A stretch of 64,000 nt of DNA from Deltaproteobacteria bacterium (GCA_034670305.1 JAXMNT010000038.1:1-64000), one strand, 5' to 3'; counted from the stretch's first letter, positions 52,741-64,000 are shown. Notes: a model not told the origin generated them from the letters alone. Made by a program: numbers and translations.

Positions 52741-53772
52741 CTAAGTGCTGCGGGCTTCGCGGTCGGAGACGAGCGCGACTTCGAGTTCTCGGCCGAGCGC
52801 GCCGAGGCCATCGTCGAGTGAGTCGACCTTCGCGTGTCCTGCGACTTCGGCGGCGAGCCGTGCCGCCACGCCTTCGAGTCGGCTGACGAGCGCTTCCATG
52901 CGGGCTTCGGCGACCTGGGTCTCCCCGTCGAGTTCGTCGCGGCGGGCCACCGCTTCCGTTCCGACACCTTCGATGCGCTCGCGGGACCGGCTGATTTCGA
53001 GGGCGTGGGCCCGAACCTTCTCTGCGAGTTCACCGAGTTCGGCGGCCGCTGCCACCACCGGATCGTAGGCCGGTCCGAGCCGACGGCCCTCCCGCGCAAC
53101 GGCCCCCACCGCACGACGCGCGCGCCGGCTCCAGCCCGCCCACCGGTCGCGTCTGCGTCGCCGGAACCACACCAGCAGCCCGAATGTCGCAACGATTGCG
53201 CCGAGGACGACGGTCACGATCGTGGACATGGACTCGGTGCGGGGCGAAGACGTGAGGGCGGGAGACGGGAGCAGGGCGGGCGTCGCGACGGTGGGGACCG
53301 TGCGCACGAGGATCTCGATGCGGCCGCGCAGCTGGCGCACGGCCTCGCTGCGGGTTTGCAAGTTGGCGGCGGCGATGCGGGCGATGGCGAACGAGACCCG
53401 CGCATCGTGCGAGGGGAGCCGCACCACGTACGAGTGGGTGTCGACGTTTTCGCTCAGCAACGTGCTGCCTTCCGGAAGGAGCACGTACGGGCCATCGGCT
53501 TCGAAGCGCAGGTCCGGGGTTTGGCGGTGGAACGCATCCAGGGTGCTTCCGGCCGCGGGAATGGACACGGTGCCGACCACCTCGATCGTCCGCTCGTCGT
53601 CCAAGAGATTGGAGACATCCAGGACGCTTCCGTCGAGCGGCAACTCGAGCCGCTCGGTGACGACGGTCGCCGGTTCGTCCGCCAGCGCGGGCGCGGCACC
53701 GAGCGCGAGTGCGCACACGGCGAGCGTGAGGCGCCATGCGCCTTGCCACCTCGATGCAGTCGACGGGCTCAT
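52741..53772 (-). CDS. Hypothetical single-pass membrane protein with cytoplasmic coiled coil
   Basis: Signal peptide, TM followed by RRRRR, helical C-terminus; 4-bp overlap with the upstream VWA gene. Confidence 0.7.
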   Translation of the reverse strand: MSPSTASRWQGAWRLTLAVCALALGAAPALADEPATVVTERLELPLDGSVLDVSNLLDDERTIEVVGTVSIPAAGSTLDAFHRQTPDLRFEADGPYVLLPEGSTLLSENVDTHSYVVRLPSHDARVSFAIARIAAANLQTRSEAVRQLRGRIEILVRTVPTVATPALLPSPALTSSPRTESMSTIVTVVLGAIVATFGLLVWFRRRRRDRWAGWSRRARRAVGAVAREGRRLGPAYDPVVAAAAELGELAEKVRAHALEISRSRERIEGVGTEAVARRDELDGETQVAEARMEALVSRLEGVAARLAAEVAGHAKVDSLDDGLGALGRELEVALVSDREARST

Positions 53773-55655
53773 CGCATCCGCCGATCACCGAAGTAGTTCA
53801 TCGCCATGACCAGGGTGTCGCGGGAGCCGCTGTCCCAGCTGCCCCAGGCGCCCTGGACGACCTGCTCGTAGCGGGCCAGCAGCGCTGCGTCCTGACGCAA
53901 GCCGTCGTCGCGCCACAGCTGCGCCGCCGCCTGCAGGAGTTCGCGGCGCTCGGTCAATGCGCGTCGGGCACTCGCCGCGTCGCCGCGCCCGAGGGCATCG
54001 GCGGCGCCTTGCAGTGCCGAGCCAGCCTGGAATGCGAGCACGGTGCGTTTCACCGGTCGGACCACCGACGCTTGGGCGCGGGCCGCGTCGGTGGTGCGCT
54101 CGGCGGTGACTTCGCGGACGACGTGGCCGTTCCGGTTTCGGATCAAGTCTTTGAAGTCGAGTGTGACCGTGGCGATGTCGCTCGTGCGGGTTCCGGCCGG
54201 AACCTCCAGCTCCATCAGGATGACGTGCTGGTCGCCGCGGCGGAACGTCGGCAAGTGGATGCGGAGACCGCGCTCTTCTTCGTTCTGGCGGTCGCGGGCG
54301 ACGCCGAGTTGGCGGGCGATGCGCTGGTCGACGGCGACTTCGGTCGCGCGGACGGCGGCGTGTTCGGTCTCACTCAGCAAACGCGATCCGTACACCTTCG
54401 TGGCACGCACGCCTTCGGCGAGTTCGACCCGAACCCGCAGACCCTGCGCCACCGCTTGGGCGCGCGCCTCGAGTTCGTCTTCGAGGATGTCGGCCATGTC
54501 TTCGGGCCGGCGCACGAAGTGGTAGCTGCCGCTTCCTTCGCGGGCGATGGTGATCATCGTCTGCTCGTCGAAGTCGGTGCCGAGCCCGATGGCGGTCGTG
54601 AGCACACCCGCTCGGTCGAACGTGCGTCGGGCGACGGCGCCGAGCATCTGCACGTTGGTCTGACCGACGGTGACCCGACCATCGGAGACCAGGAAGGTCA
54701 TCCCGACGGTGCCGCCGGCGCGCGCCCGGGGGGCGTGTTGGTCGACGAGCTCGAGCGCCGCGCCGATGTTGGTGCCGCCGCCCGGAACGAGCCGGTTGAT
54801 CGCGGCATGCGCCGAGCGGCGGTTGCCCACGCGGGCCGGGCGCACATCGAGCGTGGCTTCGTCCGAGTAGGTGACCAGACCGAACGTGTCCTGGGGCTGA
54901 AGCGCGTCCACGATGCTGTGGGCGGCGCGGATGGCGTGCTGCCACTTGTGGCCGTCTTGCATCGAACCGCTTCGATCGAGCACCAGACGCACATCCATCT
55001 GCGGGCGGCGCGGCATCTCTCCCTGTCGTCCGATGAGCGCGACCTGAAGATGGACTCGCTCGGTGCCGGTGGTCAGCTGAGCGCGTTCGAGCTCCGCGAA
55101 CATGTCGACGCCCTGGCTGGCGGGCACCGGGTAGGGCAGCGGTTCGCGGTCGCCGAACGCTTCGATGCGGACGAGCTCGCCGCCGACCATCACGCCGCGG
55201 TCCAGCAGGTCGTCGAGTCGGGCGCGCACGCCGTTGCCGCCGACGAAGTTCGAGGCGAGCACCCCGTTCTGAGGAAGCGGCGCGGCCGGCATCGGCTGGC
55301 CGGGGGCCATCAGACGACGGGGCCTGGGGCGCGAGGCCTCCTGACGCGCGGTCCCAGTGCTGGCTGCCATGGCGGACGCGCGGCCCACGTAGCCGGCGGC
55401 ACCACCGCGCGCGCCCTGGGAGCCCGCAACGACGTCGTCGTACTCCGCCGGCGCCTCTTCCGCGACGCCGGTCTCCATCTCGGGTTCGGCCAGGTCCGCC
55501 AGTTGTTCGGTCCCCACGGTGGCGGGCTCCTGGGCTCTGGGAAGTTCTTGAACCTCTTGAATGGTGGCCGCCGCCGGCTCGGCATCGGCGTTGAAGCCGC
55601 AACCGAGCGCCAGTACCAGACTCCAGATCCCCACGCGCGTCGTATGTTTGTTCAT
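53769..55655 (-). CDS. von Willebrand factor A domain lipoprotein
   Basis: Lipobox ALGC; MIDAS VLDRSGSM, GGTN, SDG, IGLG.DFDE. Confidence 0.88.
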   Translation of the reverse strand: MNKHTTRVGIWSLVLALGCGFNADAEPAAATIQEVQELPRAQEPATVGTEQLADLAEPEMETGVAEEAPAEYDDVVAGSQGARGGAAGYVGRASAMAASTGTARQEASRPRPRRLMAPGQPMPAAPLPQNGVLASNFVGGNGVRARLDDLLDRGVMVGGELVRIEAFGDREPLPYPVPASQGVDMFAELERAQLTTGTERVHLQVALIGRQGEMPRRPQMDVRLVLDRSGSMQDGHKWQHAIRAAHSIVDALQPQDTFGLVTYSDEATLDVRPARVGNRRSAHAAINRLVPGGGTNIGAALELVDQHAPRARAGGTVGMTFLVSDGRVTVGQTNVQMLGAVARRTFDRAGVLTTAIGLGTDFDEQTMITIAREGSGSYHFVRRPEDMADILEDELEARAQAVAQGLRVRVELAEGVRATKVYGSRLLSETEHAAVRATEVAVDQRIARQLGVARDRQNEEERGLRIHLPTFRRGDQHVILMELEVPAGTRTSDIATVTLDFKDLIRNRNGHVVREVTAERTTDAARAQASVVRPVKRTVLAFQAGSALQGAADALGRGDAASARRALTERRELLQAAAQLWRDDGLRQDAALLARYEQVVQGAWGSWDSGSRDTLVMAMNYFGDRRMR

Positions 55656-55849
55656 GTTTCGTCCTCAGGGCGGACCCGTCCATTTGGGCTGAGCCGCCTC
55701 CCGGGCGTCTCGAGCCGCATCCACCGTCCGCAGAACGAGACTCACGACGGGCGGCCAGTCTTTGAAAAAAAAGACCGGGCCTTCCTGCTTGCCGAGACGG
55801 GTGGCGCGCGCCGCATGCAAGCGGCGGCGGCCTGCAGTAGGATTCGCCC

Positions 55850-57619
55850 GTGAACAACGTCCAGGCGATGCAGCGGATCGGTGAGACGGTCGATCGCTAC
55901 AAGATCGAGTCCGTGCTCGGCTCCGGCGGCTTTGGCGCGGTCTTCCGCGCGCGGCACGTCATGATGGATCGCCAGGTCGCGCTGAAGCTCCTGCACCCCT
56001 CGGCCGCGGCGAGCGACGAGATCCGCGAGCGCTTCATTCGCGAGGCCCGCACGCTCGGCAAGCTCGGTCACCCGCACATCATCGAGATCTACGACTGCGG
56101 CGTGACGAATGGCGGCGAGCTCTTTCTCGCCATGCAGCTGCTCGAGGGCGAAGACCTCTCCGAACGGGCCGAGAAGCATCGTCTGACCGTGGATGCGGTC
56201 GTGGACGTGACGGTTCAGGTACTCGATGCACTCGAAGCCGCGCACGCGGCTGGCATCGTCCACCGGGATCTGAAACCGGCGAACGTCTACCTCGCGACCC
56301 AGCGCGGCCAAGAGGTCGTCAAACTTCTCGACTTCGGCATCAGCAAACTCGACGCGGGCGAGGGCACCGGCCTGACCCACACGGGGGTCGTGATGGGGAC
56401 GCCCCACTACATGGCGCCCGAACTCTTCAGCGGTATGAAGGGCGCGGACCACCGCGCGGACATCTACGCCGTCGGTGTGATGCTCTACGAACTCTTCTCG
56501 GGCGGGCCGCCGCACGACGCAGCGAGTTACGAGCAGCTGGTGGTGAAGATCGCGACCACCGATCCCACCCCGCTTCGGCAGAAGTTGCCCTCGTTGCCGG
56601 AGGCGCTCCAGCAAGTGGTCGAGCAGGCGCTCCGCAGGGATCCCGACCAGCGGTTCTCGAGCGCGAAAGAGATGCGGACCGCACTCGAGCGCGCCCGCGG
56701 TGCGTCGACCGTGCCTCTGCAGGTCGACCCATCGCTCGCGTTTGCGGCGACCGGATACTCGTCCCCCCTATCGTCGGCACCGACCGGTGCCGCCAGTGGG
56801 CCATCGGGCCCGCTCACGCCCCCACCGGCCCGCGCGCCGGTGGACATGATGGGCGGGGTCGCACCCCAGTCGACGCCGATGAGCTCAGCGTCCTTGCCTG
56901 GTCATGTGCCTGCACCCGCCATGGGGGGCAGCCCTGGCTTCGGGGGCATGCCCCAAGCGATTCCTCCGTCCTCCGACGGCGGCGACATGACGAAGCTCGT
57001 CTGGGGCGCGACCGGCGTCCTGACGCTCCTCGTCGCCATGGGCATCGGGCTCGCGGTCTTGTCGAGCCAGGACGACGATTCCGAGACCGCCGCTGGACCG
57101 AACTCCGGCTTCAGCGTCGATGTCAGCCCGCACACTGCGGCGCCCCACCAACCCCCCGTCGTCGACAGCATCGGTGCGAGGGGACCCATGCAGCCAGCCC
57201 AGGTGGTCGCACCGCAGCAGGTCGCGCCGCAGCAGGTCGCGCCCCAGGTCGCGGCGCCACCCGTCCAGCCCTCGATCGTGCCTCAGGCCACGAACACGCC
57301 CAGTGTTCCGGCCGCGACCGGGGGCCGCATTCGGATGCACGAACCCAACTTCGTCAGCAGCACCCCGCCGAGCAGCAGCTCCATCTTCGCGCGCTTCGAG
57401 AGTCAGCGCGCGGCACTGCAACGTTGCCGCCGCGACGTGCCGAACGTCGCGCGGGTGAGCTTGATGTTCAACAGCGGGCGGGTCTCGCTGGCCACGGCGC
57501 ACGGCTCGACCGACGAGGAGGTCGGTCGTTGCGTGGCGAGCATCATGCGCGAAGCAGGACCGATCGACAGCCAAGGCTCGGGCATCATTCAGCTCGTGTT
57601 CGACCTGCCGCCAGGCTGA
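55850..57619 (+). CDS. Membrane-bound Ser/Thr protein kinase
   Basis: GSGGFG, VALK, HRDLKPAN, DFG, GTPHYMAPE; TM and extracytoplasmic C-terminal domain. Confidence 0.95.
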   Translation: MNNVQAMQRIGETVDRYKIESVLGSGGFGAVFRARHVMMDRQVALKLLHPSAAASDEIRERFIREARTLGKLGHPHIIEIYDCGVTNGGELFLAMQLLEGEDLSERAEKHRLTVDAVVDVTVQVLDALEAAHAAGIVHRDLKPANVYLATQRGQEVVKLLDFGISKLDAGEGTGLTHTGVVMGTPHYMAPELFSGMKGADHRADIYAVGVMLYELFSGGPPHDAASYEQLVVKIATTDPTPLRQKLPSLPEALQQVVEQALRRDPDQRFSSAKEMRTALERARGASTVPLQVDPSLAFAATGYSSPLSSAPTGAASGPSGPLTPPPARAPVDMMGGVAPQSTPMSSASLPGHVPAPAMGGSPGFGGMPQAIPPSSDGGDMTKLVWGATGVLTLLVAMGIGLAVLSSQDDDSETAAGPNSGFSVDVSPHTAAPHQPPVVDSIGARGPMQPAQVVAPQQVAPQQVAPQVAAPPVQPSIVPQATNTPSVPAATGGRIRMHEPNFVSSTPPSSSSIFARFESQRAALQRCRRDVPNVARVSLMFNSGRVSLATAHGSTDEEVGRCVASIMREAGPIDSQGSGIIQLVFDLPPG

Positions 57620-58637: not shown

Positions 58638-58700
58638 ATCCTACACACTCCCAAAGTGGGTTGGGCCGGTCGCACGCGTTCGGATGCCCGAGCACTCGAA

Positions 58701-58726
58701 CTGGAACTTGTTCTGGAACTTGTTCT
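58701..58726. repeat. 12-bp direct repeat CTGGAACTTGTT x2 in the divergent promoter region
   Basis: CTGGAACTTGTTCTGGAACTTGTTCT. Confidence 0.6.
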
Positions 58727-58966
58727 GATGCGGCGCCGGACAAGCACTCTCATAACGCCCTGGAAACAAACAGCTTTTCGGCGTACTGCGGACCGTGGAT
58801 CGGCTGACCTGGATCGGGCGACGGTTCGCTTCCCCGTGGCCACCGCTCGCCGGATTCCTCGCATCCGCGTGGGGTTCACTTGCTAACTGGACCCGGTCGA
58901 CCGCTGCGCGCCGTTCGGATCCGGGGGGATCCGCCGACCGCCAGCAACCGCGGCCGACCCGACATC

Positions 58967-61900
58967 ATGACGCACACAACCCACCCTTCGATCGCCAACA
59001 GCTACGACGTCGTCGTCGTGGGCGCGGGCCCTGCTGGGGCTGCCGCCTCCGCCGGATTCGCCCGGCGCGGCGCGCGGGTGCTTCTTCTCGAAGCCAACCC
59101 CAAAGCATCGACCCGGCTCGCTGGTGAGTGGATCCACCCAACCGGGGCCGACGTGCTCGCGGGCTTCGGCCTGACCCCGCATGAAGCGACCGCGTCGCAC
59201 ACCCCGAGCCATGGGTTCGTGGTGTTCCCGGACGACGAGTCCGATCCGATCGTGCTTCCTTACGCCGACGGCGCGGTCGGGTTCTCGTGCGAGCACCACG
59301 ATCTGGTGGAGTCGCTTCGGACCCAGGCCCACGCGCTGAGCGGCGTCACCTACCTCGAGCGGGCGCGCGTCACCGAGATCTCGGGCGCCCGCGTCCAGTT
59401 CGCCTACGAAGGTCAGACCCGTGAGGTCCTGGCCGACCGCATCGTGGGCGCAGACGGACGCTCATCCATCGTGCGCAAGAGCCTGGGCGGTCCGACCGAA
59501 GCCGAGGTGATCTCGCACATGGCCGGCGTCGAACTCAACGACGTCGAAGTTCCGTTCGAAGGGTTTGGCCACGTGCTTCTCGGCGGACCCGGCCCGGTGC
59601 TGCTCTACCGCATCGCGCCTGGTCGCGTGCGCGCGTGTCTCGACATCGAAGTCGGTGCGCCCGGTGCCAGACGCGATGCGAGTTACCTGTGGGAAGCGTT
59701 CGCGCCCCGCTTTCCGGCGGCGCTCCGACCCGCGCTCCGCAAAGCGCTCCGATCGCAGCGGCTCACCTGGGCATGCAACCGGTTCTTGCCGCGTGCGTTC
59801 TACGGCGAGGGACGCGCCGCGCTCGTTGGAGACGCGGTCGGCTTCTACCACCCGCTCACCGCGAGCGGCATCAGCATTGGGCTTCGCGATGCCGAAGCGC
59901 TCGTCCGCTCGAACGACGTGGCCAGCTACCAGTCGGAGCGCGAAGCCGCGTCCTATGTGCCGGAGCTGCTCGCGAACGCGCTCTACCAGGTGTTCACCCG
60001 CGAAGACGCCAGTGCAGCGTCGATCCGAGCGGCCGTGTACGACGTCTGGCGCGCCAGCCCGTCGGAGCGTCAGCGCACGATGCGGATCCTCTCCGGTTCC
60101 GAGATCCGCACCGGTCAGTTCGGCAGCGCGTTCGTACGCGTCGCCCTTCGAGCGCTTCGTTCTCAGGCGGCCGACCAGGGCGTGGCCCGTTTCGCGACCG
60201 AGCTCGGCCGCTTCCTGGAGTTCGCCCAGTGGCCTGGCGCGACGGTGGTGCCCGCAGCGATTCGCCGACGCGTCCGCCCGACCGGCACCGCGCTGCAGCC
60301 GCTCCGCGGTCTCGGCGTGAAGCCGACGCTTCCCGAGCTCCCCGAGGTGTCCAGCGCACAGACCTCCGTGACGGTCGATGTCGACGCGTTGCTCGCGAAG
60401 GTTGCCGACGACGTGTCCCAGGCGTCCGTGATCGCGCGGCTCGCCGAACGTCTCGAGACCCACAGCCGACAGGGCGACCTGGACGCCGTGGTGCTCGACT
60501 CCGAGTCGCTGCTTGCGATGTCCGCCGAGACGCCCGCCGACCGGCTGCACCGCGCGCGCGCACTCGCCACCACCCAGCGCCGGTACCCGGGCGCACTGGC
60601 GCGCCACATCGGGCCCGAGCTTCGCCGGATCGCCGGCCGCGTGCGCGCCGACGAAGCCGTGACGAGCCACCCGCGCGATGTGGCCCTCGCGCTCGAGACC
60701 CTCTTTCACTGCGGTGTGCCCGTGTACGACGCGCTTTGTCGCCGGTTCATCCGCGCGCTTGGCGCCGCGCAGACCGAAGACGGAAGCTGGGGCGGTGCGG
60801 TGACCACCGCGATCGTGGCGCGCGCCCTGCTCGTGTCCGAAGCTCCGCTTTGGGCCGCCATCGAGCGGGGGCTCTCGAGCCTCGATGCATCGATCACGCT
60901 CGGGGCGGAAGCCGCCGAAGCACTGACCCTCTACCGAGCGCGCCGCGCCATGCGCCTCACCGCCCGGACCGCCCGCGCCTCCCAGGACGCTCAGCCGGCC
61001 GACCATGCGTACTGTTCCGAGGCACTGCTCGCGGTCTCGCGCAGCTTCGCGCGTCCAATCGAGATGCTGCCCGGCGATCTTCGGAGCGCCGTCACTTGTG
61101 GCTACTTGCTCTGCCGCATCGCCGACACGGTCGAAGACCACCACGGGTTCACCAGGGACGAACGCGACGAGCGCTACGGAACCTTCCTGTCCGCCATCGA
61201 AGGCCCGGCCGACAGCGCGCCGGTCGCGCGGTTCGAGGAACTGTTCGCAGACGTCGAAGGCGAGCCGGCCGAGATCGACCTCTGCCGCAACCTCTCGTCG
61301 GTGTTGCGGGTGTTCCGCGCGCTGCCTGAGGCGATGCAGACCAAGACGATTCGCTGGGTCGCCGAGATGACCCGCGGCATGCAGATCTACTCGCACCGTC
61401 CGCCCGGCAGCGACGACTACACCGCGCTGCACACGGTCGAGGACCTCGAGCGCTACTGCTACTTCGTGGCGGGCACCGTGGGCCACATGCTCACCGACCT
61501 CTTCGTCGAAGAGATCGGCGAAGTCGGCACCAGCGTGGAGCACGCGCTGCGCACCGAAGCCGAAGCGTTTGGTGTTGGCCTGCAGTTCGTGAACATCCTC
61601 AAGGACGTGACCGACGACCGCGAGCGACTCGTCTCGTTCATTCCGCGGACGTCCTGTTTCAAAGAGGGGCTGCAACTCTCGCAGCTCACCGATCCAGCGC
61701 GCCGGTCCGAAGCCCACCAGGTCGTCGCGCCGCTCTTCGACATCGCCCAGGGCCGCCTCGACCGCGCCCTCAACTACGTGCTGGCCATCCCGGCCGAACA
61801 CACCGCCGTGCGGCTCTTCTGTCTGCTGCCGCTCTGGATGGCAGTTCGCACGCTGGTCCATGCGCGCGGCAACGACGCGATGTTCGTGACCGGTGCGCCA

Positions 61901-62044
61901 GTGAAGATCGCCCGCGCCGAAGTCGAACAGCTGATCGCCGACTGCATGGCGCACGTGGGTCAGGACGACCTTCTTCGCGTTCGTTACGACGCGCTCTGGC
62001 GCGCCCCACTTTCCGCCCCGCACACCCAGAGCGCCGTCCACTGA
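58967..62044 (+). CDS. Squalene epoxidase - QW-motif linker - squalene synthase fusion protein
   Basis: GAGPAG, RLAGEWIHP.G, GADG, PVLLYRI, GDAVGFYHPLTASG, LANALYQVF (epoxidase); QTEDGSWG; VSRSF, CRIADTVED, YCYFVAGTVG, GLQFVNILKD, FCLLP (synthase). Confidence 0.88.
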   Translation: MTHTTHPSIANSYDVVVVGAGPAGAAASAGFARRGARVLLLEANPKASTRLAGEWIHPTGADVLAGFGLTPHEATASHTPSHGFVVFPDDESDPIVLPYADGAVGFSCEHHDLVESLRTQAHALSGVTYLERARVTEISGARVQFAYEGQTREVLADRIVGADGRSSIVRKSLGGPTEAEVISHMAGVELNDVEVPFEGFGHVLLGGPGPVLLYRIAPGRVRACLDIEVGAPGARRDASYLWEAFAPRFPAALRPALRKALRSQRLTWACNRFLPRAFYGEGRAALVGDAVGFYHPLTASGISIGLRDAEALVRSNDVASYQSEREAASYVPELLANALYQVFTREDASAASIRAAVYDVWRASPSERQRTMRILSGSEIRTGQFGSAFVRVALRALRSQAADQGVARFATELGRFLEFAQWPGATVVPAAIRRRVRPTGTALQPLRGLGVKPTLPELPEVSSAQTSVTVDVDALLAKVADDVSQASVIARLAERLETHSRQGDLDAVVLDSESLLAMSAETPADRLHRARALATTQRRYPGALARHIGPELRRIAGRVRADEAVTSHPRDVALALETLFHCGVPVYDALCRRFIRALGAAQTEDGSWGGAVTTAIVARALLVSEAPLWAAIERGLSSLDASITLGAEAAEALTLYRARRAMRLTARTARASQDAQPADHAYCSEALLAVSRSFARPIEMLPGDLRSAVTCGYLLCRIADTVEDHHGFTRDERDERYGTFLSAIEGPADSAPVARFEELFADVEGEPAEIDLCRNLSSVLRVFRALPEAMQTKTIRWVAEMTRGMQIYSHRPPGSDDYTALHTVEDLERYCYFVAGTVGHMLTDLFVEEIGEVGTSVEHALRTEAEAFGVGLQFVNILKDVTDDRERLVSFIPRTSCFKEGLQLSQLTDPARRSEAHQVVAPLFDIAQGRLDRALNYVLAIPAEHTAVRLFCLLPLWMAVRTLVHARGNDAMFVTGAPVKIARAEVEQLIADCMAHVGQDDLLRVRYDALWRAPLSAPHTQSAVH

Positions 62045-62081
62045 AAGATTTCGGCTCGTTTCGCGAGCCAGTGAGAACACC

Positions 62082-63185
62082 ATGAAACACGCAAGCGATG
62101 CTCCCATTCTCGTGACCGGCGGCGCCGGTCATGTCGGCGCCAACCTCGTTCACCGCCTCGTCGAAGACGGCCACCGTGTGCGTGTGTTGCTGCGCGCCGG
62201 CGAGAACAACGAATCCGTGCAAGGGCTCGACGTCGAGTCCGCGATCGGCGACCTGCGCGATCCGACTTCGCTGCGCGAAGCGGTCAAGGGATGCCGCCGG
62301 GTCTTTCACGTCGCCTCGATGGTCAGCACCATCGACGGTGACGCCGACCACCGCCGCGCGATCTACGAGACCAACGTCGTCGGCACCCGTCATCTGCTCC
62401 GCGCCGCGCGCGAGCACTCGGTCGAGAAGTTCGTCCTGACGAGCTCCTTCTCTGCGGTCGGCTACGACCTCGACGAGACCGACCAGCCCGCCCACGAAGG
62501 CATGGGGTTCTACCCGTTCCACCGCGCGATGCCCTACGAGCGCACCAAGGTGCTCCAGGAGCACGAAGTGCTCAAAGCCGTCGTCGAAGGTCTCGATGCG
62601 TGCATCGTCACGAGCTGCGCAGTCATCGGCGCGCACGACTACCTGCCGAGCCGCATGGGCCGCACGATGGCCAAGTTCGCCAACCGGAAGCTGAACGCCT
62701 ACGTGCCGGGCGGCTTCGAGTTCGTCGCCGCGCGCGACATCGTGGCGGGCCACCTGCTCGGCATGGAACGCGGCCGCGTCGGACAGAAGTACGTCATCGC
62801 GAGCCAGTTCCTCACGCTCGACGACATCTGGGACATGCTCGAAGAGATCACCGGCCAGCCGCGCCCGCGCTTCAAGGTGCCGAGCGCCGCGCTCTTGCCG
62901 ATCGCCGAGCTCAGCAGCTGGATGATGTACCGCATCAGCCCGCGCTTCCCCCAGCTCCTCACACCGGGCGCGATCCGGCGGCTGCAGCTCCGCCGCCACG
63001 CGGACACGAGCAAAGCCCGCCGCGAGCTCGGCTTCGTGCCGACCCCGATGGAGGAAGCGTTTGCCGAGGCCTACGCGTTCCACTTCTCGAGGGGCGCGAT
63101 CACCCACCCCGAGGCCAAGAAGCCCGTTGCGCCGAAACCCTCGCGCACCGCGCCCATCCACTCCGACATCCGAATCCACGCCTGA
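62082..63185 (+). CDS. NAD(P)-dependent 3-beta-HSD-type SDR, SdmB-like
   Basis: LVTGGAGHVGANLV, GDLRD, TSSF, YERTK, AYVPGGFEFV, KARRELG. Confidence 0.82.
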   Translation: MKHASDAPILVTGGAGHVGANLVHRLVEDGHRVRVLLRAGENNESVQGLDVESAIGDLRDPTSLREAVKGCRRVFHVASMVSTIDGDADHRRAIYETNVVGTRHLLRAAREHSVEKFVLTSSFSAVGYDLDETDQPAHEGMGFYPFHRAMPYERTKVLQEHEVLKAVVEGLDACIVTSCAVIGAHDYLPSRMGRTMAKFANRKLNAYVPGGFEFVAARDIVAGHLLGMERGRVGQKYVIASQFLTLDDIWDMLEEITGQPRPRFKVPSAALLPIAELSSWMMYRISPRFPQLLTPGAIRRLQLRRHADTSKARRELGFVPTPMEEAFAEAYAFHFSRGAITHPEAKKPVAPKPSRTAPIHSDIRIHA

Positions 63186-63188
63186 GCC

Positions 63189-64000
63189 ATGAGCAGAGTT
63201 TACGTTCAGCAAGATGCCCCGCCGCCTTCGTTCGAAGAGGCGAAGAACACCCGTCAGAAGGTGCGCGCCGCCGGCATGCACCCCGACTACTGGTACCCCG
63301 CGGCCTGGGCCAAAGATCTCAAGCCCGGCGAAGTGAAGGAAGTCGTCTTCTGGAAGCGCAGCATCGCGCTCTTCCGGGGCGACGACGGGCAGGTCCGCGC
63401 CATCGACAACCGGTGCGCGCACCGGCAGCTCAAGCTCACCACCGGCCACGTCGAGGGCTGCAACCTCGTCTGCCCGTACCACGGTTGGGCGTACGACGGG
63501 CAGGGCCGCGTCGTGGACATTCCGCACTCGCTCTTCGGTCGCAAGTTCCCGAAGTTCCAGGTGCCCTCGATCCCCGTGAAGGTGAAGCACGGCCTCATCT
63601 TCATCTTCCCCGGCGACCCGGAGAAGTCCGAGGACGTGGCGCCCCCGGACATCCCTGAGCTCGAAGGCAAGAACCCCTGGCCGACCGTCTGCGTGGACTC
63701 CACCTGGAAGGCCCACCACTCGATGATCATGGACAACGTGAGCGACTTCACGCACGCGTTTCTCCACCGTCGCTTCAAGCCCTTCGACGACGCCAAGCTC
63801 ATTCACTACGAGACCATCGGCGACACCGTCGAACTCGAGTACGAGACCAAGGTCGGACGCGGACCCATCAGTGGACTCTTCGTCGACCGAAGCCGCGTCG
63901 ACTCCGACTCGATGAAGCTCGGGTACGAGTACCCGTACCAGCGCAGCAACACGGACAACCAGATCAAACACTGGTGCTTCGTGCGGCCGATCGACGAACG
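63189..64000 (+). CDS. Rieske non-heme iron oxygenase, SdmA-like; runs off the window end
   Basis: My translation: DYWYP, NRCAHR...CPYHGW (Rieske), DNVSDFTHAFLH (mononuclear Fe site); absent from the ORF track because it has no stop in the window. Confidence 0.88.
   Translation, partial: MSRVYVQQDAPPPSFEEAKNTRQKVRAAGMHPDYWYPAAWAKDLKPGEVKEVVFWKRSIALFRGDDGQVRAIDNRCAHRQLKLTTGHVEGCNLVCPYHGWAYDGQGRVVDIPHSLFGRKFPKFQVPSIPVKVKHGLIFIFPGDPEKSEDVAPPDIPELEGKNPWPTVCVDSTWKAHHSMIMDNVSDFTHAFLHRRFKPFDDAKLIHYETIGDTVELEYETKVGRGPISGLFVDRSRVDSDSMKLGYEYPYQRSNTDNQIKHWCFVRPIDE

Follow-up and report, generated by a model that had tools for sequence, protein, structure and literature searches.

We analyzed a 64,000-nucleotide stretch of a genome assembly deposited as Deltaproteobacteria bacterium (GCA_034670305.1, JAXMNT010000038.1:1-64000), referred to here as the window. 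Near its end lies a single open reading frame (ORF) whose product, P0001, carries a squalene epoxidase (SE) module at its N terminus and a squalene synthase (SQS) module at its C terminus, separated by a module descended from a triterpene cyclase. Squalene synthase and squalene epoxidase catalyze the consecutive steps from farnesyl diphosphate (FPP) to squalene and from squalene to 2,3-oxidosqualene, and are in the textbook picture separate, membrane-anchored enzymes. We report that P0001 is probably a bifunctional enzyme of a Myxococcota bacterium that performs both steps at the entry to sterol synthesis, a reading well supported by sequence, structure prediction and gene context.

One reading frame joins a squalene epoxidase to a squalene synthase

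Translation gives one uninterrupted frame at the place and of the length reported in the initial annotation (Table 1). The longest ORF in this frame opens with a TTG at 58880 (1054 amino acids); since the Met column of the ATG at 58967 is kept in at least 90% of 121 aligned relatives, that ATG is the likelier start. Upstream lies a 223-nucleotide gap of lower GC content, beside a divergent ORF. Pfam recognizes FAD_binding_3 (PF01494; residues 13-313, 83.4 bits against a cut-off of 22), SE (PF08491; residues 160-408, 105.9 bits against 20.1) and SQS_PSY (PF00494; residues 689-983, 146 bits against 26), boundaries that agree with the earlier placement of an epoxidase domain to about 60160 and a synthase domain from about 61000. 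Two ORFs that overlap the fusion, at 59462-62107 (-) and 59635-61329 (+), matched no Pfam family.

A full-length AlphaFold2 model built with the 121 aligned relatives has a mean pLDDT of 94.2 and a pTM of 0.75, with low-confidence stretches of three or more residues at 670-672 and at both termini only. In this model P0001 is predicted to consist of three folded modules, an epoxidase (residues 1-440), a helical repeat (488-662) and a synthase (677-1012). The 270 residues that separate the two enzyme halves, initially taken for a linker, thus hold a confidently folded third module. No strong transmembrane segment was found in P0001, the highest 19-residue Kyte-Doolittle mean being 1.55, and the protein is therefore expected to be monotopic and surface-bound.

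An error at the junction had been raised as a concern at the outset, and adjacent but separate SE and SQS genes do occur in close relatives, so that a fusion produced by assembly or frame calling could be imagined. However, in all three runs of a single study, one that may have supplied this DNA, one contig of 31,900 letters spans positions 58700-62300 with 0 differences and 0 gaps (contig depths of 12.6, 33.4 and 24.7), the spacer is a folded, conserved module, and numerous independent assemblies, some with contigs of 9 to 12 Mb, show the fused architecture again. On the sequence data, an artefact is already refuted, and we give it virtually no credence. A further run, X5, yielded only two short contigs, which are 95-99% identical and cover part of the SQS end and part of the start of the next gene, SdmB.

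Table 1. Features of the fusion gene, its cluster and related fusion loci. Positions are in window coordinates unless a locus (L) or genome contig is named.
Feature	Position	Strand	Basis or remark
SE–cyclase-like–SQS fusion ORF (protein P0001)	58967..62044	+	1025 amino acids and a single terminal stop (translation)
Squalene epoxidase (FAD monooxygenase) module, residues 1-440	58967..60286	+	Pfam SE and FAD_binding_3, SQLE match
GAGPAG, FAD dinucleotide-binding GxGxxG, residues 19-24	59021..59038	+	motif; G24 invariant in 121/121
GADGRSS, "DG" FAD motif, residues 161-167	59447..59467	+	motif; G164 invariant in 121/121
VGDAVG, "GD" FAD motif, residues 287-292	59825-59842	+	motif; G288 and D289 invariant in 121/121
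Cyclase-derived alpha/alpha repeat module, residues 488-662, nine helices, predicted non-catalytic	60428..60952	+	model, VIA-align, family profile
QTEDGSW, one surviving QW-like repeat, residues 602-608	60770-60790	+	motif
Squalene synthase module, residues 677-1012	60995..62002	+	Pfam SQS_PSY; alignment to solved squalene synthases
Asp-rich motif DTVED, residues 720-724	61124-61138	+	motif
Asp-rich motif DVTDD, residues 880-884	61604-61618	+	motif
SdmB-like sterol C-4 demethylation dehydrogenase	62082..63185	+	NF052578 E 6.1e-91, 305.6 bits (cut-off 600); Pfam Epimerase, 3Beta_HSD
SdmA-like Rieske 4-methylsterol monooxygenase	63189..64000, on to contig 64322 beyond the window	+	NF052579 E 3.8e-89; Rieske and VanA_C
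HMG-CoA reductase	~64379-65620, window scale, beyond the window	+	cluster gene
Oxidosqualene cyclase	~65701-67752, beyond the window	+	TIGR03463 648 bits; TIGR01787 443.9 bits (cut-off 322.7)
Sterol methyltransferase, last gene of the cluster (L003 5801-6802)	~67800-68801, beyond the window	+	Sterol_MT_C E 4.6e-24
Second SQS_PSY gene, 349 amino acids	G000 contig C45 47478-48224 (L005 1354-2403)	-	HpnD 189 bits, CrtB 188 bits, both below cut-offs
SE–oxidosqualene cyclase fusion	L011 3862-7455	+	single frame
SE–oxidosqualene cyclase fusion	L012 2881-6321	-	single frame
SE–oxidosqualene cyclase fusion	L013 84-3680	-	single frame
SE–oxidosqualene cyclase fusion	L014 3855-7436	-	single frame
SE–oxidosqualene cyclase fusion	L019 4192-8373	-	single frame
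SE–oxidosqualene cyclase fusion	L020 7760-11341	-	single frame
SE–oxidosqualene cyclase fusion	L021 1417-4803	-	single frame
SE–oxidosqualene cyclase fusion	L022 684-4172	+	single frame
Further SE–oxidosqualene cyclase fusions	L025, L027, L028, L072, L099; L097		L097 ends at contig end

Both enzyme halves keep conserved catalytic positions

The closest sequence in the PDB to the epoxidase half is human SQLE (6c6n), at an E value of 2.8e-29 with the single sequence and 2.9e-49 with the family profile. The top Foldseek match, 6c6r_A (E 5.6e-21, target TM score 0.81, 447 columns on a target of 451 residues), indicates that the epoxidase fold extends as far as about residue 440, taking in the equivalent of the C-terminal membrane-associated helices of human SQLE. 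Nine positions are invariant in 121/121 relatives: G24, E42, R50, G53, E54, G164, Y214, G288 and D289. Human numbering was counted along the alignment, where an offset of 116 matches the letters of I162, E165, Q168, Y195 and Y335, all of which are named in passages of PMC6327030. The same source describes Y335 as contacting the flavin N5 through a bridging water; its counterpart in P0001 is Y214, a Tyr in 62/62 fused rows.

The synthase half can be aligned along its entire length with squalene synthases of solved structure, at 1.3e-16 for 7wgh and 1.4e-15 for the human enzyme 3asx, and the family profile reaches 2.9e-38 and about 1e-27 on the same two entries; of a 354-residue query, residues 11-322 align to 7wgh and 2-322 to 3asx. 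Invariant positions comprise S691, R692 and F694 (of an SRSF stretch), D720, E723, D724, Y830, Q873, N876, D880 and D884. Both Asp-rich sites described initially are present, and DTVED and DVTDD align with the human SQS sites DTLED and DYLED. By counting along the alignment we take Y830 to correspond to human SQS Y171, and the two motifs to the sites of human D80 and D219.

SQS_PSY is a broad family, and the synthase half also gives weak matches to other models in it (HpnD 54.4 bits, HpnC 44.5 bits, CrtB at most 42.9 bits), so that dehydrosqualene, phytoene or, as for HpnD, presqualene diphosphate could be considered as products instead of squalene; phytoene was the product that the initial annotation had feared. 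Against this, the score of the squalene synthase model is roughly double that of HpnD (111 against 54 bits), the whole module aligns with squalene synthases while CrtM, the dehydrosqualene synthase, and phytoene synthases align over about 70-120 residues only (about 70-90 with the single sequence), and the fusion partner is an enzyme that uses squalene as its substrate. We regard another product as highly improbable.

The fusion heads a predicted sterol gene cluster

The fusion is the first of six same-strand genes, predicted from sequence to encode, after it, SdmB, SdmA, HMG-CoA reductase, an oxidosqualene cyclase (OSC) and a sterol methyltransferase (Table 1; the coordinates of the last three are approximate). 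From the stop codon of the fusion to the SdmB-like start the gap is 37 nucleotides; at 62053-62069 it holds an inverted repeat, GGCTCG...CGAGCC, with 6-bp arms and a 5-nucleotide loop, with no T-run after it. The cluster's OSC carries the motif VSDCTAEA. We considered and rejected a Glu in place of the catalytic Asp of this enzyme, as VSDCTAEA is present and the sequence VECTAS is a second, downstream site.

The genome that contains the fusion (G000) is 96% complete in 105 contigs. A search of it returned one SE match, which is the one in the fusion, one cyclase, of OSC type, and two SQS_PSY matches, the fusion and one other. The latter is a lone CrtB/HpnD-like gene (Table 1), beside which lies a 461-amino-acid ORF that matched no family. 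The HpnCDE route to squalene requires HpnC as well as HpnD, two distinct proteins of the PF00494 type, and the fusion is therefore the only evident squalene route in this genome, as far as its incomplete assembly shows. The same operon order is found in a second genome of the phylum (G235, 61% identity) and in a metagenome-assembled genome (MAG) of an uncultured Sandaracinus sp. (58% identity).

Upstream of the operon, on the same strand, lie a Ser/Thr protein kinase gene at 55850-57619 (+) (Pkinase E 6e-49) and a 705-amino-acid ORF at 53736-55853 (+) that matched no family. A divergent 384-amino-acid ORF, likewise matching no family, separates these two from the operon.

Fused, shortened and split forms occur in Myxococcota

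The fusion is not rare. Among the matches listed in a search for full-protein relatives (563-1794 amino acids, each a cluster at 90% identity), 120/120 carry PF08491 together with PF00494, under public names such as "squalene/phytoene synthase family protein", "FAD-dependent oxidoreductase" or "squalene monooxygenase". A survey of 401 genomes from this phylum found the two halves in a single frame in at least five (G000, G235, G325, G350 and G375, the last four confirmed frame by frame); two candidates were scored per genome, so that the fusion counts are lower bounds. The best 80 named genome loci include eight single-frame fusions, all with Myxococcota-type titles: an uncultured Sandaracinus sp., a Myxococcales bacterium, two Polyangiales, one Polyangiaceae, one Sandaracinaceae and two "Deltaproteobacteria" MAGs.

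Within the family the enzyme halves are near-constant in length (about 390-430 and 331-354 residues in 35 rows), and the 121 aligned proteins fall by spacer into 13 short, 32 middle, including P0001, and 76 long. When 120 SE domains were placed on a tree, with cyanobacterial and planctomycete sequences as the root, all 62 fused rows lie inside one group of 70 rows (SH-aLRT 88) that also holds eight unfused rows, and P0001 sits in a 17-row clade made up of middle-class proteins only (support 99). The short-spacer forms require at least four separate changes on this tree.

Unfused pairs of these genes, which like the middle module had been overlooked, occur close by. Within the window's own family, eight genomes of the sister genus g2 carry separate, adjacent SE and SQS genes without the middle module (split frames checked for G017 and G205), and six more split-adjacent loci are found among the named genomes. 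Split-adjacent genes fall within the fused group on the SE tree, with support values of 94 and 89 and a warning of long branches, and on an unrooted SQS tree they group with standalone 358-amino-acid synthases.

Two sets of apparent fusions were rejected. In G275 (L018 6414-8861 (-)), a candidate frame of 816 amino acids is in fact two ORFs in the same frame, with TAA and TGA stops between them. These two in-frame stops lie four codons apart, and the locus looks one step away from a short-spacer fusion. Four Gemmatimonadota rows covering residues 4-1017 were set aside, the two that were resolved being an SQS gene beside a FAD protein, and the SE profile gives these FAD proteins 42 bits or nothing.

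Two cultured species, Cystobacter fuscus and Sandaracinus amylolyticus, are among the named sources of long-class members. According to PMC4919349, strains of C. fuscus make cycloartenol, and strains of S. amylolyticus make lanosterol and zymosterol. Sterols in strains of species with long-class members lend indirect support, by analogy, to the idea that the fused proteins may work in vivo.

The middle module descends from a triterpene cyclase

In the full-length model, the means of 10-residue blocks over residues 488-662 are about 92-98 pLDDT, and the middle segment folded alone reaches 89.3. Pfam finds no family in the middle of P0001, even at E values up to 1. Four long-class relatives were scanned, and three match SQHop_cyclase_C (PF13243) at 30-34 bits and one at 18, the cut-off being 26.1. 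Foldseek returned nothing for the middle model at E ≤ 0.001, its weak top rows being alpha/alpha toroids. An exhaustive structural alignment with VIA-align against 48,161 chains puts human OSC first (1w6k_A, Z 17.4, root-mean-square deviation 2.9, 195 aligned residues, 20% identity), followed by the squalene-hopene cyclase (SHC) 1gsz_A (Z 15.2) and the small myxobacterial cyclase 8paj (Z 14.1). The first non-cyclase alpha/alpha barrel appears at Z 13.9, and since helical repeats reach about Z 13 by their arrangement alone, the structural margin is modest.

What settles the descent are the profile, hidden Markov model (HMM) and long-class Pfam scores rather than structure alone. The family profile (positions 550-709) matches SHC 1gsz at 1.2e-12, human lanosterol synthase 1w6k at 5.4e-12 and 8pak at 1.3e-11, and an HMM built from the family's middle segments gives 35-131 bits on genuine OSCs; with OSCs from SE-OSC fusions it scores 89-131 bits and with standalone OSCs 43-117 bits, ranges that overlap and do not single out the SE-OSC fusions as the source of the module. 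The module is thus descended from the barrel of a class II triterpene cyclase, and the catalytic acid is lost: the portion of OSC that aligns with it begins just past the catalytic motif, and in the 121 middle segments a search for cyclase acid motifs found a DCTA-like sequence in 1/121 and DxDD in 3/121, against xDCT(A/S)E in 15/15 true OSC frames (SDCTAE in 14, TDCTSE in one). A full toroid barrel has twelve helices, and a true class II cyclase two barrels. QW-like repeats number 0-3 in the long class and 0-2 in the middle class, with one left in P0001, where the two repeats that precede it in the long class have decayed.

When the long-class middle module alone was used as a query, it returned 23 representatives out of 1.84 billion, 12 of them proteins of 1123-1200 amino acids matched at about 390-830, and as far as a single-sequence search reaches the module appears confined to the fusion family. 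Within the middle class (31 rows), identity to P0001 is 61% for the epoxidase, 36% for the middle and 68% for the synthase, suggesting that the module evolves about twice as fast as the enzyme halves. Near-invariant positions in the family include R592 and R593, just before the surviving repeat, and W419, W422 and P423 at the boundary of the epoxidase and the middle module. We take the module to be mainly a rigid structural spacer.

Other sterol-pathway fusions and a possible role for the relic

SE is also found fused to a complete OSC that keeps SDCTAEA, in single frames of 1129-1394 amino acids at 8/15 loci and at six further loci (Table 1). At E42, R50, E54, G164 and D289, one or two of these eight SE-OSC rows depart from the consensus. 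In G350, G375, L025, L027 and L028 the gene immediately downstream of the SE-OSC gene is a long-class SE-relic-SQS gene, and the SE-cyclase fusions of this phylum show that selection favors SE next to a cyclase.

These neighbors are one argument that the middle module is itself functional, both activities being as proposed, and that it binds or passes squalene or oxidosqualene, or docks the OSC into a three-step membrane complex. Its retention as a confidently folded unit in the middle and long classes and the near-invariant Arg and Trp/Pro positions point the same way. However, the module diverges fast, has been lost or shortened at least four times on the SE tree, and is absent in 13/121 relatives and in the split forms; we consider a working module rather unlikely and favor the spacer.

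Three further combinations were seen. HMG-CoA reductase and an SdmB-like protein share one stop-free frame of 861-908 amino acids at L011 2-2725 (+) and L020 12283-14865 (-), which may be a fusion. In two Polyangiaceae MAGs, SQS and an SdmB-like protein share a stop-free frame of 784-791 amino acids (L072 5917-8268 (+) and L099 1193-3565 (+)). Finally, at L050 441-3518 (+), 1026 amino acids, and L096 5944-8907 (+), 988 amino acids, the frame continues from SQS into a cyclase region with a weak likeness to OSC (41-108 bits).

P0001 as a probable bifunctional sterol-entry enzyme

We propose that the C-terminal module of P0001 would join two molecules of FPP and reduce the intermediate with NADPH to squalene, and that the N-terminal FAD monooxygenase module would convert squalene and O2 to 2,3-oxidosqualene. 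This product would pass to the cluster's oxidosqualene cyclase, and from there to C-4 demethylation by SdmA and SdmB and to the sterol methyltransferase. The fusion would fix the two activities at a 1:1 ratio and co-locate them at the membrane surface, where the very hydrophobic squalene would be handed over, with the pseudo-cyclase acting chiefly as a rigid spacer between the enzymes. The initial proposal of a bifunctional enzyme thus gains complete SE and SQS modules with their catalytic positions kept, a sterol operon, and a genome with no SE or SQS-type synthase other than those in the fusion; the activities themselves are predictions.

Three observations weigh against this proposal. The synthase half reaches only 111.2 bits with its best NCBIfam model, the squalene synthase model TIGR01559, below the cut-off of 286.75. 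The sister genus g2 keeps the two genes separate and adjacent, so the fusion is not required for the pathway. Third, by alignment count P0001 has F84 at the position of human SQLE Y195 and H57 at that of Q168; according to passages of PMC6327030, Y195 is hydrogen-bonded to Q168, and the Y195F change in the human enzyme loses more than 90% of its activity. The same Phe is present in 118/120 and the same His in 120/120 bacterial SE rows of every architecture, including cyanobacterial, Gemmataceae and Bradymonadaceae proteins, and this near-universality argues that the pair is a general bacterial trait rather than a lesion of P0001. It looks like a difference that separates bacterial from eukaryotic SE and does not set P0001 apart from other bacterial homologues.

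The Phe and the sub-threshold synthase score could also mean that one half has no catalytic activity and acts as a scaffold or regulator only. Neither half looks inactive, however, as judged from sequence: every conserved catalytic position checked is kept in both, the enzyme halves are the most conserved parts of the protein, and the genome lacks any other SE or SQS-type synthase yet encodes an OSC and sterol-tailoring genes. The inactive domain about which the initial annotation had warned is one to which we attach little credence, and the bifunctional enzyme remains our preferred reading.

A bolder version would make P0001 the core of a sterol-entry complex, in which the relic of an ancestral SE-cyclase(-synthase) still holds lipid or docks the cyclase, FPP is converted to oxidosqualene and delivered to the cyclase, and squalene never leaves the assembly; we consider this unlikely.

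Discussion

A fusion of SE and SQS is not described in the main-text portions covered of the full-text literature, including PMC8237579, PMC7306690, PMC10152446, PMC12004948, PMC12146001, PMC4919349, PMC10202945 and PMC10070321. SE-cyclase fusions are already known in passing (PMC10070321). New here are the cyclase relic inside the protein and the stepwise series of spacers; the family itself is large and uncharacterized, and its sequences are already public.

A natural, apparently anchor-free chain of SE and SQS could serve the production of oxidosqualene and triterpenoids in bacteria, and a single chain would offer a clean system in which to ask about the channelling of a very hydrophobic intermediate. 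The pseudo-cyclase illustrates how a catalytic domain can decay to a spacer, a process for which the long, middle, short and split forms provide a natural deletion series. Myxococcota have been proposed as the source of eukaryotic sterol genes (PMC8237579), and unrecognized fusions therefore affect how homologues of SE, SQS and OSC are counted, trimmed and placed in trees. The operon's sterol methyltransferase, of the side-chain type, also bears on the reading of sterane biomarkers, which is under debate (PMC10070321). If the complex is real, the Myxococcota series of fusions (SE-cyclase, SE-relic-SQS, SQS-SdmB and HMG-CoA reductase-SdmB) would record the assembly of the sterol pathway in the proposed donor lineage of the eukaryotic genes.

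Comparison with known systems

The epoxidase half of P0001 shares with human SQLE (6C6N/6C6P/6C6R) the FAD monooxygenase fold with its C-terminal helical domain, the FAD motifs and the counterpart of Y335. Unlike SQLE, P0001 has no N-terminal membrane or regulatory region, carries Phe and His in place of Y195 and Q168, and continues into two further C-terminal modules. The synthase half resembles squalene synthases of the ERG9/FDFT1 type (7WGH, 3ASX, 3VJ8) in its full-length alignment, both Asp-rich motifs and the SRSF and YCY.VAG stretches; in contrast to them, it lacks the C-terminal membrane anchor, is fused at its N terminus and stays under the TIGR01559 cut-off. Between the two, the middle module shares alpha/alpha toroid repeats and QW-like motifs with class II triterpene cyclases (1W6K, 1GSZ) and with the small single-barrel myxobacterial cyclases (8PAK, 8PAJ), but has only about nine helices and neither the DxDD nor the DCTAE acid.

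The split SE and SQS genes of genus g2 and other Myxococcota follow the order SE, SQS, HMG-CoA reductase, OSC and are 43-55% identical to the halves of P0001; they occupy two separate reading frames without a middle module. Also related in architecture are the bacterial fused squalene monooxygenase (SMO)/OSC homologues, which were trimmed as "fused SMO/OSC homologs" according to the Methods of PMC10070321. On the SE tree their epoxidase parts group apart, and they pair SE with a complete cyclase and no synthase, whereas P0001 has a decayed barrel and then a squalene synthase. Like P0001, they are naturally occurring fusions of enzymes for successive steps of sterol entry, in which an N-terminal SE is followed by a cyclase fold.

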